DNA of 17,426 nt from IMG/VR virus record IMGVR_UViG_3300000292_000062. The stretch is one strand, 5' to 3'. The notes beneath the pieces were generated by a model. The model saw only the letters and a program-made list of their open reading frames with translations, did not search any database and was not told where the DNA came from. A program made the translations under genes and the position numbers. Each line of letters opens with the position of its first letter. The stretch's first letter is position 1. Shown in pieces: positions 6,455 through 16,112 of this stretch. The stretch is from a virus. Taxonomy: Duplodnaviria; Heunggongvirae; Uroviricota; Caudoviricetes.

Positions 6455-6464
6455 TGCCACCTCC

Positions 6465-6866
6465 TTAATTCGTGTACGTGATCTGGTACGTGATTTCCGC
6501 CATCGCCCAGGTGGCCATCTCATTATCACGTTGATAGTTAAAACCGAGTGGGATCAGGGTGTCGATGAGTCCGGAAAGTGCCGGTACATCATTCAGGGCC
6601 GGGAAAATGGTGCTCTCCATCCACATATCCAGCTCTGAATCCGGTGCCTGTGCCCGGATGAAGACAGCAATATGCAGAACAGCCTGCCAGTCATCTTCAT
6701 CCGTCATTTTTCCGGTGTACTGAGCATCACTCAGCCACACCGCCACGGCAGGCAGTTCCTGCGCATCAACAAATGCCGGAAGCCCGTCAAAAAACGTGGC
6801 GCTGTCTCCACACTGTTCCCGAAGGCGTGCCAGTACGACCTGGCGGATTTGTGTATGTCGGTTCAT
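6465..6866 (-). CDS. U: Tail terminator protein U
   Basis: About 133 aa; motifs ATFFDG, PAVAV, YTG, DSELD.WMES match lambda gpU. ATG overlaps the Z stop (ATGA). Confidence 0.8.
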   Translation of the reverse strand: MNRHTQIRQVVLARLREQCGDSATFFDGLPAFVDAQELPAVAVWLSDAQYTGKMTDEDDWQAVLHIAVFIRAQAPDSELDMWMESTIFPALNDVPALSGLIDTLIPLGFNYQRDNEMATWAMAEITYQITYTN

Positions 6867-13922: not shown

Positions 13923-14413
13923 TACTCCTCCTGCTGTAATTCCTCCTCATCATCCGCACCTGCTTCGGTCACCCGCAGGGCTATCTGATCGCGCAGATCA
14001 TCAATAATGGACTGAACACGGCTCACAGCGGCAGGCTGCAGGCCGCAGTCACGTTCCAGAATATCCGGTAATGTCTCCAGCACCTGCACGACCGCTTTTG
14101 CCCAGATGGCAAACTCCCGTCTGACATCACTGGCCGGAATGAGTTGTGCCGTTTCCTGTTCGAACTTAAGACGCTCACGTTCAGACTGATACCAGGCTTT
14201 GCGTTCATGTGGATCCATTTCGCCCTCAGCAACCGGCGGTGGTAACCCCATAAATTCAGTCAGAATATCGGTCAACCGGTATAGCTTGAGTTTGTCATGT
14301 CCACCAGCGGGACGAATGTTTTTCAGTCTTGCCACGACAGTCTGGCGGTGCAGACCAGATAAAGCCGCCAGTTGATTAATATTCAGCACCAGGTTTTTCA
14401 ACTCATGATCCAT
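13922..14413 (-). CDS. Terminase small subunit (Nu1-like, N-terminal winged HTH)
   Basis: 163 aa. N-terminus INQLAALSGLHRQTVVARLKNIRPAG is HTH-like, comparable to lambda Nu1 KKQLADIFGASIRTIQNWQEQGMPV; acidic C-terminus. Sits directly upstream of TerL with a 1-nt overlap; GGAGG RBS 5 nt before the ATG at 14411-14413. Confidence 0.75.
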   Translation of the reverse strand: MDHELKNLVLNINQLAALSGLHRQTVVARLKNIRPAGGHDKLKLYRLTDILTEFMGLPPPVAEGEMDPHERKAWYQSERERLKFEQETAQLIPASDVRREFAIWAKAVVQVLETLPDILERDCGLQPAAVSRVQSIIDDLRDQIALRVTEAGADDEEELQQEE

Positions 14414-14465
14414 ATATCCTCCGGAGAGCTTTAAACATGCATCGTGCGAACAACTTTAAGAAAAC

Positions 14466-14502
14466 GCGTTCGATGTCGAACAAAAAACACTCAATTCGAC
14501 AT
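14466..14502. promoter_or_regulatory. Dyad-symmetric repeats in the terminase leader, candidate small-terminase binding sites (cosB-like)
   Basis: GTTCGATGTCGAAC (14468-14481) is a palindrome; ATGTCGAA (14473-14480) and TTCGACAT (14495-14502) form an inverted repeat with a 14-nt A-rich spacer. CGAACA recurs at 14447 and 14477. Located between the putative cosN and the TerS start, where lambda cosB lies. Confidence 0.35.
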
Positions 14503-14582
14503 ACAAAAAACAAACAACCATTAATAATCAATAAGATGCAAAGATGATGGTGGCCGATAAAAATGCAAAAACTAGCCTTTTT

Positions 14583-14602
14583 CCGCGACGCTCCCGCCCC
14601 GT
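14583..14602 (-). other. Putative cohesive-end site (cosN-like)
   Basis: Minus strand reads GGGGCGGGAGCGTCGCGGAAAAAGG, against the lambda left end GGGCGGCGACCTCGCGGGTTTTCGC as recalled. Lies about 170-190 nt upstream of the small terminase start, as cosN does relative to Nu1. Confidence 0.4.
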
Positions 14603-14701
14603 GGCAGGGCCCCCCACAGGGAGGACCCGACAGCCTGACAACCGTGACGAGCATCTGAAACAGAGCTTTACATAATGGCGTGGGGATAATTCAGAAGGAC
14701 A

Positions 14702-14932
14702 TCACAGCATGCCCACACAAATTAGTGTGAGTGTCCTGTTTCTTCCACCCCCGCACAGGACTGGCGAGCATGAGGGACAACCCCGCGAACCATAACCGCG
14801 CTGATGACAGGACTGGCCCGGCTTGTATTGCTTCCAGCCTTCGCTTTTGTGGCTTTTGCAATAGCCTGACGGATCTGTGGTGGTATTGCGGTAGCCGCGA
14901 ACACGGCAGGTTTTTGGGGTTCGTGGGGGCAT
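14702..14932 (-). CDS. Hypothetical small Cys-rich protein (76 aa), uncertain
   Basis: ATG at 14930-14932 preceded by GGAG at 5-nt spacing. Translation MPPRTPKTCRVRGYRNTTTDPSGYCKSHKSEGWKQYKPGQSCHQRGYGSRGCPSCSPVLCGGG... has 7 Cys. It lies in a GC-rich island where three frames are open, so it could be spurious. Confidence 0.25.
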   Translation of the reverse strand: MPPRTPKTCRVRGYRNTTTDPSGYCKSHKSEGWKQYKPGQSCHQRGYGSRGCPSCSPVLCGGGRNRTLTLICVGML

Positions 14933-15154
14933 ATGTACTCCAATGAAGAAGCCACCAACATAGCCTCCTCCATTCATCGTGAAACTATTTTCATCTACCC
15001 AGTAATGAATTCTTTGAAGAGTTGTGATCAATACAACTCGCTAATGGAGAGGCTTGTCTCACACGTGAGACAAGCTTCCTGTTTGATTTACTGGACAGTA
15101 TAGGAGGACAGAATGCCTTCCTCACTCGAATAACATCAATTAAGGAGGTTCAAC

Positions 15155-15277
15155 ATGTTTCATTCCACAAGTCATCAGGCTGTAATTATGGCAGCATCAG
15201 TTTGTGCCACAGACCTTTTCCGCTTCACTTTGAGCCTGATTCATTTCTACCTGACCGGCTCGCCTCTATCTTTCTAA
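15155..15277 (+). CDS. Hypothetical 40-aa peptide with a strong RBS, uncertain
   Basis: TAAGGAGGT at 15141-15149, 5 nt before the ATG at 15155. Translation MFHSTSHQAVIMAASVCATDLFRFTLSLIHFYLTGSPLSF is moderately hydrophobic. It is on the strand opposite the lysis genes, as bor is in lambda. Confidence 0.25.
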   Translation: MFHSTSHQAVIMAASVCATDLFRFTLSLIHFYLTGSPLSF

Positions 15278-15398
15278 TCCCCGATTAATCCAAATTTCAC
15301 TGCCATAATGCCGACATTCTCTGCCATTGTTGGCTCCGTTTATCCGTTAAAAGGGATATCAGTTAAGTTATCCCGTGCAGGGTATAAGCCATTATCAA

Positions 15399-15458
15399 AG
15401 CCACTCTGTAGGGAGTGGCTTTTGTAATGGCAATAAAAAGCCCCGCGAATGCGAGGCT
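15399..15458. terminator. Pair of adjacent hairpins, candidate bidirectional terminator between the lysis operon and the accessory region
   Basis: 15399-15420 is a perfect 8-bp stem AGCCACTC/GAGTGGCT with a 6-nt loop, followed by TTTGT on the plus strand. 15439-15458 forms a 7-bp stem with one mismatch, followed on the minus strand by TTTTTATTG, about 200 nt downstream of Rz. Confidence 0.45.
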
Positions 15459-15637
15459 AAATCCTGGTATTTGTAATGACTGGCTCTTATCTCAACGCAG
15501 CCCCTTACCGCGCGCAAGATGCTCAATATCAAGCATCAGCAATGAGATGTTTAATCTGGATTCACTCCAGAAGTGATCACCATCCTGTCTACAGAGCCAG
15601 ATGTGAAGGATGATGAGTAAAATTATCGCTATCATCG

Positions 15638-15721
15638 NNNNNNNNNNNNNNNNNNNNNNNNNNNNNNNNNNNNNNNNNNNNNNNNNNNNNNNNNNNNNNN
15701 NNNNNNNNNNNNNNNNNNNNN
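15638..15721. other. Assembly gap or masked bases (84 N) covering the 3' ends of Rz and Rz1
   Basis: Run of N seen directly. Confidence 0.95.
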
Positions 15722-16112
15722 TACCGAGAACGTTTCGTCCAGCAACTGGAGAGAGTTCGACGGTGGCATCATTGCCCATGCCGGAGGCGCTGGAGGTTTC
15801 GGCTGAGGATGGCACAGGGCATTTTCCTTTGACGAACACCCGACCACCATTATCAAGCTTGCGCCGAAGAGCATCATTTTTAGCTTTCGCATCAGCTAAC
15901 TCCTTCGTGTATTTAGCATCGAGTGCATCAGCAGCACGCTGGCGCTGCTGCATGTCAGTAATGGTGGCGGTCGCCTGCTTCAGCTCACTGACTTTTTTAT
16001 CACGCTGTTCTTTATAGGCGATGGCGTTATCACGGTAATGATTGACCGCCCACGACAGGCAGACGATGATGCAGATAACCAGAGCATAAATAATCGCGGC
16101 GACTCTGCTCAC
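15638..16112 (-). CDS. Rz: Spanin inner-membrane subunit Rz (i-spanin); 3' end lies within the N run
   Basis: Translation [39 protein letters not shown]...[19 protein letters not shown] is near-identical to lambda Rz as recalled. Probable GTG start at 16110-16112 overlaps the R stop (GTGA), replacing lambda's ATG. The ORF-track extension to 15492 beyond the gap is rejected. Confidence 0.85.
15722..15892 (-). CDS. Rz1: Spanin outer-membrane lipoprotein Rz1 (o-spanin), embedded in Rz in the +1 frame; 3' end in the N run
   Basis: [44 protein letters not shown]... has a lipobox (VVGC) and a proline-rich core like lambda Rz1 (MLKLKMML...VVGCTSK...KPPPPPAW). ATG at 15890-15892. Confidence 0.75.

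Follow-up and report, generated by a model that had tools for sequence, protein, structure and literature searches.

Phage morons, as defined in the case of HK97 and HK022, are inserts consisting of a promoter, a gene, and a terminator located between late genes. The bor gene of lambda and the iss gene of E. coli are a moron occupying the slot between Rz and cos, in the orientation opposite to that of the late operon. In lysis cassettes of the SfIV/P2 type, the Rz1-like o-spanin is LysC (PF23793). Hok, TisB, and ZorO-like proteins belong to the type I toxins and other small membrane proteins with one helix found in enterobacterial prophages, and antisense antitoxins overlapping the 3' end of the toxin gene are known in the type I systems of Bacillus subtilis prophages. 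Lambda-type terminases cut cos without any HNH partner. The location of HNH genes next to cos and the terminase is a known arrangement (PMC3592412).

We analyzed the interval extending from cos to Rz in a window of 17,426 nucleotides (the whole stretch of DNA of virus record IMGVR_UViG_3300000292_000062). The window represents a lambdoid prophage of E. coli, with the late genes located on the minus strand, and a sequence identical to it (100%) is present in E. coli FDAARGOS_1304. In our opinion, the interval is probably a mosaic lambdoid lysis-to-packaging junction derived from at least two phage lineages, plus one apparently maintained small unit on the plus strand.

The interval resembles each of the above systems in part. 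It carries an HNH stub similar to the HK97 gp74-type HNH endonucleases (PF01844; gp54 of Shigella phage SfIV) in its N-terminal Cys-rich region and its position next to cos, but the stub ends after codon 50, has no catalytic motif, shows the substitutions C14Y and R42C in comparison with the intact HNH proteins, and is accompanied by a terminase of the GpA/DUF1441 and not the P27/HK97 type. Another segment shares homology with roughly the 30 final codons of the SfIV/P2-type lysC, but only this tail is present, with in-frame stops, and the prophage has its own lambda-type Rz/Rz1. A 40-codon ORF lies in the same Rz-cos slot as bor and iss and, like them, is oriented against the late operon, but its product shows no sequence similarity to Bor, having 40 aa and no lipoprotein signal as against the 97-aa Bor lipoprotein. 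This ORF is like Hok, TisB, and the ZorO-like proteins in its size, predicted single helix, strong Shine-Dalgarno sequence (SD), prophage location, and antisense overlap, but it shows no similarity to the curated families, no antitoxin RNA was identified beside it, and the hydrophobicity of its E. coli forms is marginal. As in moron units, convergent terminators bound a slot which is filled in relatives, and the small gene with its own terminator is moron-like; however, the slot is empty in the window and the promoter scan yielded nothing for the small gene.

Components of the cos-Rz interval

The interval between cos and Rz named in the initial annotation was recovered, with a cosN-like site at one end and the end of Rz (15632) at the other (Table 1). 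On the minus strand, the cosN-like letters are ACGGGGCGGGAGCGTCGCGG, as compared with ACG/GGGCGGCGACCTCGCGG in lambda. The DUF1441 small terminase starts at 14413, and the cosN-like site is located about 170 nt upstream; TerS was assigned to DUF1441/phrog_141 and TerL to GpA_ATPase plus GpA_nuclease. At the other end, a run of N at 15639-15721 masks parts of Rz and Rz1 in the window. The 50-aa ORF following Rz is called "hypothetical" in the annotation of this sequence and "partial i-spanin" in another genome.

Table 1. Positions in the window of the features identified in and around the cos-Rz interval
Feature	Position	Strand	Basis or remark
cosN-like site, lambda-type packaging module	14583-14602	-	Aligned locally with the cos junction of circularised lambda
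cos-proximal segment common to mEp460/Ayreon-type phages	14439-14800		blastn, 81% identity to mEp460, 73-85% to Ayreon
Putative recombination joint, 15-nt patch CGAACCATAACCGCG	14786-14800		Overlap of mEp460-type and SfIV-type homologies
HNH endonuclease pseudogene, codons 1-50 only	14783-14932	-	RefSeq pseudogene call on the identical sequence, alignment
Second small hairpin, GAGTTGT-N7-ACAACTC	15019-15039	-	Better pairing of the variants in minus-strand RNA
Conserved hairpin of up to 13 pairs, including the perfect 11-bp palindrome at 15052-15075	15049-15078		T-rich tail on the plus strand
Candidate small-protein gene	15141-15277	+	SD 15141-15149, ATG 15155, 40 codons, stop 15275-15277
3'-end remnant of SfIV-type lysC (Rz1-like o-spanin)	15225-15316	-	About the last 30 codons; in-frame stops in the window
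Hairpin with UUUUGUAAU tail	15399-15429	+	Likely intrinsic terminator of the small-gene unit, predicted
Hairpin with UUUUUAUU tail	15431-15458	-	Intrinsic terminator after the lysis cassette, predicted; terminator scan
50-aa ORF after Rz (phrog_11822)	15492-15644	-	5' end hidden by the N run of the window
Functional lambda-type Rz (PF03245)	15632-16112	-	Annotation, family match
Rz1 (68 aa, PF06085), embedded in Rz	start 15892	-	

In agreement with the initial annotation, the ORF list contains no long ORFs between cos and Rz, and no homolog of bor is present in the window: a tblastn search with lambda Bor and one prophage Bor yielded only chance matches with E values above 4. No gnsB- or ynfN-like gene was found in the RefSeq annotation of the identical sequence or in Pfam and NCBIfam scans of the main small ORFs. 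Several other reading frames were rejected. The ORFs annotated as mEp460 gp59 and as a "putative late gene regulator" in Ayreon, which cross the cos region, show weak or no family matches; they are truncated in the window and are probably spurious. On the minus strand, the ORFs of 83 and 109 aa which cover the HNH stub correspond to out-of-frame or read-through frames of the pseudogene. When the small frames were checked for conservation, that of the 40-aa ORF was found to be conserved and those of the two others were not: most variants of the 56-aa ORF on the plus strand (14933-15103) are already interrupted at codon 24 or 29, and the length of the 44-aa ORF on the minus strand (14991-15125) ranges from 32 to 44 aa among variants.

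The HNH endonuclease stub and the probable mosaic origin of the interval

The 76-aa Cys-rich ORF on the minus strand (14702-14932), which had been singled out as a possible small-protein gene inside a GC-rich island, does exist and is preceded by the GGAG ribosome-binding site described. The island is also real, with 58.7% GC at positions 14730-14930 versus 46.5% at 14400-15638 and 53.0% in the whole window. The small-protein reading of this ORF did not hold, however, since it consists of the 50 N-terminal codons of an HNH gene followed by a read-through of unrelated sequence down to 14702. The stub aligns with residues 1-50 of intact 116-aa HNH proteins, with 64-68% identity over the whole alignment; its residues 1-49 match phrog_144 (E 2e-8), and SfIV gp54 and E. 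coli homologs align with it. The PF01844 domain occupies residues 66-112 of the intact homolog, and the 76-aa ORF, which diverges after residue 50, gives no Pfam match and lacks the beta-beta-alpha-metal (HNH) catalytic motif including the CxxC zinc site. The presence of an intact HNH frame or of catalytic-motif residues downstream of 14783 was excluded in this sequence. Judging from these alignments, the Cys-rich ORF is a pseudogene of an HK97/SfIV-type HNH endonuclease devoid of the catalytic domain. The intact copies adjoin a P27-family TerS belonging to a P27/HK97-type terminase, in contrast with the terminase present beside the stub.

The long-range inverted repeat thought to bound the island had been placed incorrectly: its arms, CCCCGCGAACC and GGTTCGTGGGG, are located at 14781-14791 and 14918-14928, respectively. 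It can moreover be attributed to chance, since three repeats with 11-nt arms, at most one mismatch, and a spacing of 50-200 nt were observed as against a mean number of 1.63 in dinucleotide shuffles, 26% of which gave three or more. The two arms derive from two different ancestral sequences.

In blastn searches and a five-way alignment, homology to mEp460 was found to stop at 14800 and homology to SfIV to begin at 14786. The segment at 14933-15316 is present upstream of HNH in 686 of the 5426 E. coli genomes. It is unannotated in all 38 of the listed records covering that part, the only features mentioned being lysC/Rz1 at the 3' end. PF23793 (LysC) was matched on the intact protein, and the annotated lysC or Rz1 ends at the position equivalent to the end of the remnant in SfIV, RM10466, and CFSAN061762. 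The possibility that known genes might have been overlooked, which had been raised at the outset, thus proved to be correct in the case of the Cys-rich ORF (HNH) and the segment 15225-15316 (lysC tail), but not in that of the 40-aa ORF.

The following sequence of events would explain this arrangement. The ancestral right end, of the SfIV/HK97 type, would have carried lysC, a spacer of about 290 bp, the HNH endonuclease, and cos in that order. Earlier exchanges would already have cut lysC down to a tail of about 90 bp, a reduction which we attribute to the use by the prophage of a lambda-type Rz/Rz1 pair, and the same exchanges may have brought two convergent terminators back to back. The right end would have been joined to an mEp460-type cos and a lambda-type (DUF1441 plus GpA) terminase module by a crossover via the 15-nt microhomology inside the HNH gene, leaving the dead 5' stub. 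Since lambda-type terminases cut cos without such a partner, the stub would presumably be dispensable.

Hairpins, predicted terminators, and the moron slot

The perfect 11-bp inverted repeat GCTTGTCTCAC-AC-GTGAGACAAGC was found exactly at the position given in the initial annotation. None of 100 shuffles contained a perfect 11-nt inverted repeat with a gap of 0-10 nt. Folded as plus-strand RNA, this hairpin has an energy of -21.1 kcal/mol (z -4.95), as compared with -17.7 kcal/mol (z -4.15) for the minus strand. Among the variants, 95.7% of the cells are paired and three pairs are altered on both sides; the covariation score is 0.212, as compared with 0.137 +/- 0.013 in shuffles, and none of the 500 shuffles reached 0.212. 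Since the pairing has been kept via compensatory changes, the palindrome can be read as a selected hairpin. It is also worth mentioning that paired changes in the arms can arise without selection, by template switching within quasi-palindromes. Of the two roles initially suggested for the palindrome, that of a sequence-specific operator is disfavored because both arms shift together to different bases; that of a terminator agrees with the scan, which lists 15049-15078 as terminator-like on the plus strand, with the predicted tail CTGTTTGATT. In the second hairpin (15019-15039), one pair changes from U-A via U-G to C-G when read on the minus strand, the intermediate being C.A on the plus strand.

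These structures might also be considered as cis elements of the lysC-HNH intercistronic region, along with the SD complement present on the late mRNA (ACCUCCUUA). They would serve as processing or stability sites, control HNH translation, or belong to an sRNA, and would be relics here because the HNH gene is dead. The compensatory changes in the palindrome and the variation of the second hairpin, which fits minus-strand pairing, are consistent with such an RNA function; the fold of the minus strand at 14920-15240 is also stable (-101.2 kcal/mol, z -4.0), and the block 15113-15152 is the least variable part of the segment. However, beyond the two local hairpins, the covariation is small, with consensus-fold terms of -1.1 and -2.15 kcal/mol, and about five or six of the wobble-compatible events in the palindrome fit the plus strand as against three or four the minus strand. 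The Rfam search suggested in the initial annotation detected no family at the gathering score in the whole window, and a permissive regional search likewise yielded only sub-threshold hits, namely part of a human lncRNA, the precursor of a miRNA, and two families of bacterial sRNAs (20.4 vs 55 bits for STnc560 and 18 vs 50 bits for the other). When 45 loci upstream of HNH homologs in other genera (L039-L083, of 80 fetched from other genomes) were compared, the spacer was not found to be conserved, apart from one weak match, which implies that HNH-terminase modules do not carry these hairpins in general. An RNA function would also leave unexplained the in-frame SD and ATG of the Klebsiella homologs described below, and we regard it as highly improbable.

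The two back-to-back hairpins previously noted at 15399-15458 were found to be convergent predicted terminators, based on folding, the terminator scan, and the annotation of phage Ayreon. For the hairpin at 15399-15421, the best fold is that of the plus strand (-18.8 kcal/mol, z -5.3), and the site equivalent to 15399-15429 is annotated as a terminator in Ayreon. It is absent from the list obtained in the terminator scan, possibly because the A-tract upstream can pair with the U-tract, and this A-tract would make the terminator partly bidirectional. Homologous hairpins (GCCACC..GGTGGC followed by TTTG) occur after the small ORF in the Klebsiella loci. The best fold at 15439-15458 is obtained with the minus strand (-14.1 kcal/mol), and the scan passes it as 15458-15439 (-), along with 15049-15078 (+). 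In R11-type relatives, an insert of 304 bp carrying a 95-aa gene (phrog_3527) is located exactly between 15430 and 15431. As far as can be told from the letters, the two hairpins bound a moron slot which is empty in the window.

The candidate 40-codon gene

The initial annotation proposed that the region might encode a small protein, and of the two ORFs that it put forward, the 40-aa one (MFHSTSHQAVIMAASVCATDLFRFTLSLIHFYLTGSPLSF) holds up as a candidate gene. This ORF and its consensus SD, opposite to the lysis genes, were both found; the E. coli forms turned out to be marginally or poorly hydrophobic for a membrane helix, with a maximum Kyte-Doolittle value over 19 aa of 1.53 in the form present in the window and 0.90 in the SfIV form, as compared with 1.83 in Klebsiella type 1. 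The Klebsiella forms have Lys-rich N-termini and hydrophobic cores. AlphaFold predicts a single helix at residues 2-34 (pLDDT 83). The family has no match in Pfam, NCBIfam, PHROGs, or PADLOC, amounts to seven clusters among 1.84 billion representatives, and the literature search returned no paper on the peptide motif.

The ORF is kept in 57 of 58 distinct variants, and in all 94 E. coli copies located by means of an anchor independent of the ORF, the SD, the ATG, and the 40 codons are intact. In Klebsiella prophages, where one homolog is indexed in hundreds of assembly blocks, the versions have 37-38 aa, an SD and ATG of their own, a divergent N-terminal half, and the same C-terminal motif; their position and orientation are unchanged among different spanins and terminases. 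Two N-terminal versions were distinguished in E. coli and at least four in Klebsiella, each of which supplies an SD and an in-frame ATG about 20 codons upstream of the common motif. One Klebsiella-type copy has ATA instead of ATG as its start, and a few of the database alleles are frameshifted at the C-terminus. In 42 of the 100 or so related contexts, the small gene is followed on its own strand by bor/iss, at a distance of about 180 nt.

The last 17 codons of the ORF are overlapped in antisense by the lysC remnant. Full-length lysC occurs in only about 20 of 100 contexts of the 40-aa ORF, the remnant being found in about 80%, and a lysC fragment is always retained beside the small ORF, even when it is non-coding. 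The conserved C-terminal half of the peptide coincides exactly with this overlap, and its conservation could be partly inherited from lysC.

The 40-codon ORF is probably a real small gene (15155-15277, plus strand). An unlikely alternative is that the region is a pure decay remnant: nothing would then be functional between 14660 and 15500 apart from the terminators, the ORF would be accidental, running antisense to a conserved lysC tail, and its SD would be either fortuitous or complementary to an RNA element of the late mRNA. The above coincidence with lysC fits this possibility, as does the lack of any gene annotated by RefSeq at the position of the small ORF in the listed records. In E. coli, the pN/pS ratio of the N-terminal half is about 1.4, as would be expected in the case of decay, whereas the C-terminal half shows a pN of 0 and a pS of 0.06-0.13, a signal arising from only 13 column changes. 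The openness of the frame within E. coli is weak evidence, since the roughly 41 column changes are estimated to create only about two stops. In the last 17 codons of the E. coli copies, however, the column changes are distributed 3/1/9 over codon positions 1/2/3 (chi-square p=0.018), and the variable third positions are position 2 of the lysC codons and not the lysC wobble positions; the latter are nearly invariant and the second positions of lysC vary, which speaks against mere decay. In Klebsiella, the codon-position counts were not significant, but the pN/pS values of the types are 0.4-0.5 and 0.23 over the whole ORF, i.e., below 0.5. The 20-nt bins with the least variation in the segment are the 5' UTR/SD block and the C-terminal half of the ORF. 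A remnant undergoing decay would hardly be expected to keep its frame where lysC is truncated or broken, as in Kp4856-1, in which lysC is broken and the small ORF intact, or to show divergent N-terminal versions each having an SD and an in-frame ATG. Nor does a chance match account well for TAAGGAGGT, the SD, which occurs in two copies in the window versus 0.09 expected.

The apparently maintained unit on the plus strand would consist of the consensus SD, the 40-codon gene, a 3' UTR of about 120 nt, and the hairpin/U-tract terminator at 15399-15429, lying opposite the late operon at the place where lambda carries bor, and would encode a single-helix, probably membrane-associated peptide with the invariant C-terminal motif LSLIHFYLTGSPLSF. 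Searches upstream of the ORF revealed no sigma-70-like promoter in the window, in locus L006, or in three Klebsiella loci, which is also in keeping with decay; upon hand inspection, the hexamers matched three or four of the six positions at most. Like other morons, the gene would presumably be transcribed, translated, and expressed from the prophage, and late antisense transcription through it would oppose the ORF during lytic growth. Sequestration of the SD by an upstream CCUUCCU, which alifold predicts, was rejected, as the local fold is no stabler than shuffles (z +0.44). Our best guess for the product would be a small protein located in the inner membrane and acting in lysogenic conversion or like a toxin.

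The ORF might more specifically encode the toxin of a module resembling type I toxin-antitoxin systems, the antisense regulator being produced from the lysC-tail DNA or by late read-through. The short peptide with its predicted single helix, the Lys-rich N-termini and hydrophobic cores of the Klebsiella forms, the consensus SD, and the prophage location would all suit a toxin of this kind, as would the convergence with a transcript overlapping the 3' end of the ORF, the constant presence of a lysC fragment, and the precedent of the 3'-overlapping antitoxins of Bacillus subtilis prophages. This possibility nevertheless seems very remote: no conserved antisense promoter was detected, the single 9/12 matches present in two loci being within the shuffle expectation; none of the known toxin families resembles the peptide; the hydrophobicity of the E. 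coli B form appears insufficient for a membrane helix; and the SD-sequestering structure is unsupported. A literature search on type I toxins near spanins returned nothing relevant. It is conceivable, though very improbable, that the 40-aa gene and the accompanying piece of the o-spanin gene form one antisense-regulated module moving as a unit between E. coli and Klebsiella lambdoid prophages. The 3' end of lysC would then have been co-opted as the template of an RNA controlling a small membrane peptide, in a type I toxin-antitoxin, lysis-timing, or exclusion switch, and the module would be silenced by late read-through.

On the whole, the region consists of ordinary mosaic debris plus one uncharacterized small-protein family. 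Recording the HNH stub mainly serves to prevent the Cys-rich ORF from being taken for a gene. The interval illustrates how lambdoid prophages are assembled, by fusion of an HK97/SfIV-type right arm with a lambda-type terminase module. The segment harboring the 40-codon gene is present in about 13% of the complete E. coli genomes. Annotations seldom include this gene, which has no place in any described family; it occupies the slot in which prophages keep genes directed at the host, such as bor/iss, and iss often comes directly after it. Should the gene be expressed, clinically common strains would possess a new small protein of prophage origin, and the obligatory sharing of its 3' DNA with an o-spanin gene would represent a compact case of antisense gene overlap.

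Mosaic structure of the interval between cos and Rz

The region between the lysis and packaging genes consists mostly of ordinary mosaic debris, plus one candidate gene of modest interest: the HNH stub (the 5' part of an HNH endonuclease gene), the tail of lysC (an Rz1-like o-spanin gene) and the terminators are known things, degraded or empty. The host element is an E. coli lambdoid prophage, 961 surrounding bases being 100% identical to the FDAARGOS_1304 chromosome, and parts of these bases occur in 3833 of the 5426 complete E. coli genomes. On the minus strand, the late genes follow the order lysozyme, Rz/Rz1, 50-aa ORF, interval and terminases. Since the cosN-like sequence aligns with the lambda cos junction, the placement between cos and Rz in the initial annotation is correct; the site precedes the terminase start by ~170 nt, versus 190 nt in lambda. 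A search of the window for a Bor homolog was negative, in agreement with the view that no classical bor homolog is present.

Features of the interval and its surroundings (window coordinates unless a locus is named; L001, source-genome locus; other L numbers, loci of relatives, L004 and L005 being phage records)
Feature	Position	Strand	Remarks
Rz with embedded Rz1	16112 down to 15632	-	PF03245; PF06085
Embedded Rz1	about 15686-15892, partly masked; L001 4114-4320	-	68 aa
N run	15639-15721; L001 4080-4149		83 N for 70 real bases
50-aa ORF	15644-15492	-	phrog_11822, function unknown
Hairpin	15458-15439	-	best fold on this strand, -14.1 kcal/mol; then UUUUUAUU
95-aa gene of relatives	between 15430 and 15431; L002 3154-3441	-	phrog_3527, unknown function
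Hairpin	15399-15421	+	best fold on this strand, -18.8 kcal/mol; then UUUUGUAAU; counterpart of annotated terminator in phage Ayreon
lysC tail	15225-15316		92 bases, right-hand end of segment 14933-15316; last ~30 codons; Rz1-like o-spanin, PF23793, SfIV-type
40-codon ORF	15141-15277	+	SD TAAGGAGGT, ATG
Stretch doubled in relatives	14869-15155; L002 2596-3154 and 1841-2596		also L010, L013, L014, L024, L028
76-aa ORF	14702-14932	-
HNH pseudogene	14783-14932	-	C-terminus missing; RefSeq annotation
cosN-like sequence	14583-14602		alignment to lambda cos junction
cos-crossing ORFs (82-94 aa)	~14570-14800; L004 134-382, L005 127-411	-
Small terminase	14413-13922	-	DUF1441
Large terminase	13922-11820	-	GpA-type

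The interval was shown to be a patchwork, in which an SfIV/HK97-type right end has been joined to cos DNA of mEp460 type and to a terminase of lambda type. The Cys-rich 76-aa ORF described previously exists, and both the RefSeq annotation and the alignments identify it as an HNH pseudogene stub: its residues 1-50 can be aligned to intact HNH proteins (116 aa) from Shigella phage SfIV and E. coli prophages, no similarity to these proteins was found past residue 50, and its sole match is phrog_144 (HNH endonuclease, residues 1-49). The HNH domain (PF01844), corresponding to residues 66-112 of the intact proteins, is absent, and two conserved residues are substituted (C14Y and R42C). An HNH gene beside cos is an arrangement already described (PMC3592412). 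In the relatives, the intact gene has the lysis cassette on one side and a P27/HK97-type terminase on the other; the stub adjoins a lambda-type terminase. Cos-proximal homology to mEp460 and Ayreon spans 14439 to 14800 and homology to SfIV 14786 to 15316; the breakpoint is visible in their overlap, CGAACCATAACCGCG. Fusion to the mEp460-type cos and lambda-type terminase killed the HNH gene.

The GC-rich island was recovered (58.7% GC vs 46.5% locally). The long-range inverted repeat placed at its ends was misplaced: the true arms lie at 14781-14791 and 14918-14928, and such repeats are not above chance (3 seen vs 1.63 expected; 26% of shuffles reach 3). As the left arm is on the mEp460 side of the joint and the right arm in the HNH sequence, the two have no common history.

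Another route to HNH loss is seen in an O157:H7 strain (L038 114-1327), where IS1203 (IS3-family) has inserted into an HNH gene of the intact type that lies upstream of the same segment. The ORFs annotated across the cosN-like site, one of them labelled 'putative late gene regulator' in Ayreon, gave sub-threshold family matches only and look like spurious frames of GC-rich DNA.

The segment 14933-15316 lies upstream of HNH in 686 of the 5426 E. coli genomes, with 83-100% identity. It did not turn up next to the HNH homologs compared from other genera, in the upstream position, which makes it a lineage-specific piece of the mosaic rather than a general component of the HNH-terminase module. The lysC tail at its right-hand end contains stop codons in this window; lysC was shown to have been functionally replaced by the lambda-type Rz/Rz1, only the tail surviving. 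Mosaic boundaries recur at 14786, 15316 and 15430/15431. The last of these separates the two hairpins, which are present as initially described. In R11-type relatives, a 304-bp insert carrying a 95-aa minus-strand gene lies exactly between them, and the hairpin pair is therefore an empty moron slot. The 95-aa gene has no Pfam or PADLOC match; its equivalent in strain E10 is a DUF8602 domain-containing protein in RefSeq. One hairpin would end the lysis-side transcript unless antiterminated, and the other would be well placed to end a plus-strand small-gene transcript. In several Klebsiella loci, the small ORF is followed by homologous hairpins (GCCACC...GGTGGC) with TTTG tails.

Because the 83 N of the masked run stand for 70 bases, coordinates to its right are 13 off those of the source genome. 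The masked bases comprise the Rz1 3' end, an internal part of Rz near its 3' end and codons 1 and 2 of the 50-aa ORF. The RefSeq record of identical sequence has no annotation for the embedded lambda-type Rz1 (lipobox LIMVVGC; PF06085, E 4e-21). The 50-aa ORF has a hydrophobic N-terminus and a 13-nt overlap with the Rz stop; it makes up a separate PHROG, its conservation extends to mEp460 and Ayreon, and in another genome PGAP calls this stretch a partial i-spanin. It may be a gene or a piece of Rz.

The palindrome upstream of the small ORF

The perfect inverted repeat at 15052-15075 is present as described, and none of 100 shuffles contains such a structure. Among 18 distinct versions of 15010-15092, 95.7% of the cells of its 13-pair stem are paired, and three pairs are altered on both sides (TC..GA to CA..TG, for example, or T-A to C-G via T-G). 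The covariation score (0.212) exceeds that of column shuffles (0.137+/-0.013; 0/500 as high) and collapses once the partners are slid. The fact that the pairs change jointly to different bases argues for structure rather than for the sequence-specific operator proposed earlier, which is disfavoured. We regard the palindrome, from this pattern of changes, as a hairpin probably kept by selection. On the plus strand it might act as a terminator or insulator directly ahead of the small gene; alternatively, it might serve in the stability or processing of the late mRNA. Wobble-compatible intermediates are about equal for both strands, and the folding energies are -21.1 kcal/mol for the plus strand, where a T-rich tail follows, and -17.7 for the minus strand. 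Variation in a second hairpin (15019-15039) fits the minus strand. No Rfam family matched and the covariation terms of global consensus folds were small; the suggestion that the region encodes a small protein or an sRNA keeps a candidate for its first half, the 40-codon ORF, and no known RNA family for its second. Taken as a whole, the initial observations were partly confirmed and their interpretation partly supported.

Some relatives have two copies of 14869-15155, a stretch that takes in the 5' end of HNH, the two hairpins and the SD; the junction is precisely at the A in the ATG of the small gene. With several percent of difference between them, the copies reflect recombination between two lineages, not a recent tandem duplication.

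A candidate small gene opposite the lysis genes

The 40-aa ORF with its consensus SD was found as described. The nonamer occurs twice in the window (0.09 expected); the other exact copy, at 6459-6467 (-), presumably serves a structural gene as its ribosome-binding site. The ORF is kept in 57 of 58 distinct segment variants. When copies were located by an anchor outside the ORF, all 94 had the SD, the ATG and exactly 40 codons, and a full-length lysC was present in only some 20 of 100 contexts. In the last 17 codons, antisense to lysC, column changes fall 3/1/9 at plus-frame codon positions 1/2/3 (p=0.018) and 10 of 13 are synonymous. The varying sites are second positions of lysC codons and lysC wobble positions hardly vary, which is the opposite of what constraint on lysC would produce.

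Homologous 37-38-aa ORFs, each with its own SD and ATG, occupy the same place and orientation in Klebsiella phages and prophages and a few other assemblies, flanked by lysis and packaging genes of various types. Their N-terminal halves diverge strongly (MLKISLLSTIVNHKITFAVIYF..., MHKPLIKLFLIKLLFSGFFQR..., MTKILAKKLLNLLFSHMFFY..., MTKLITKYVIINFLFSKELTR...); the C-terminal motif F.LSL.H(F/Y)(Y/F)LTG(S/Y)PL(S/T)F is common. A lysC fragment adjoins every homolog, often with a complete spanin set elsewhere, and in phage Kp4856-1 a stop and a frameshift disrupt this fragment, next to an intact small ORF. Several of the Klebsiella prophages L253, L255, L259 and L261 carry a complete lysC 700-1200 bp from a decayed lysC 3' fragment beside the small ORF; the fragment's nucleotides are near-identical across loci despite strongly different small-ORF N-halves.

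The statistics rest on few events. The pN/pS values are 0.4-0.5 between two Klebsiella type-1 alleles differing at 29-31 of 114 nucleotides, 0.23 within Klebsiella type 2 and ~1.4 in the E. coli N-half. The 5' UTR/SD block (15113-15152) and the small-ORF C-half are the least variable parts of the segment. No promoter was recognisable upstream in any locus, a predicted SD-sequestering fold was no better than shuffles, and the E. coli forms are marginal in hydrophobicity. The family comprises 7 clusters among 1.84 billion representatives; the peptide matched nothing in Pfam, NCBIfam, PHROGs or PADLOC, a literature search found no paper with the motif, and this part of the segment is without RefSeq annotation in all records among the matches listed. 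All in all, it is rather probable that the ORF is a translated gene.

The small gene would be the one unit of the interval that is maintained, a plus-strand gene equipped with a ribosome-binding site and a terminator of its own, and would probably be expressed from the prophage, like bor/iss; bor/iss lies downstream on the same strand in many relatives. Late transcription in lytic growth would necessarily be antisense to the small gene and oppose it. Its anatomy resembles that of prophage morons. Its size and setting resemble those of type I toxins, but no antitoxin RNA, a defining element of such systems, was found. The peptide may be a conversion factor, a membrane peptide of toxin-like kind or a protein of some other sort. 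AlphaFold predicts a single helix (residues 2-34, pLDDT 83), which is weak information at so short a length. The small gene may best be described as a new, uncharacterised example among small prophage-encoded single-helix proteins, with one unusual feature, its constant overlap with the tail of an o-spanin gene.
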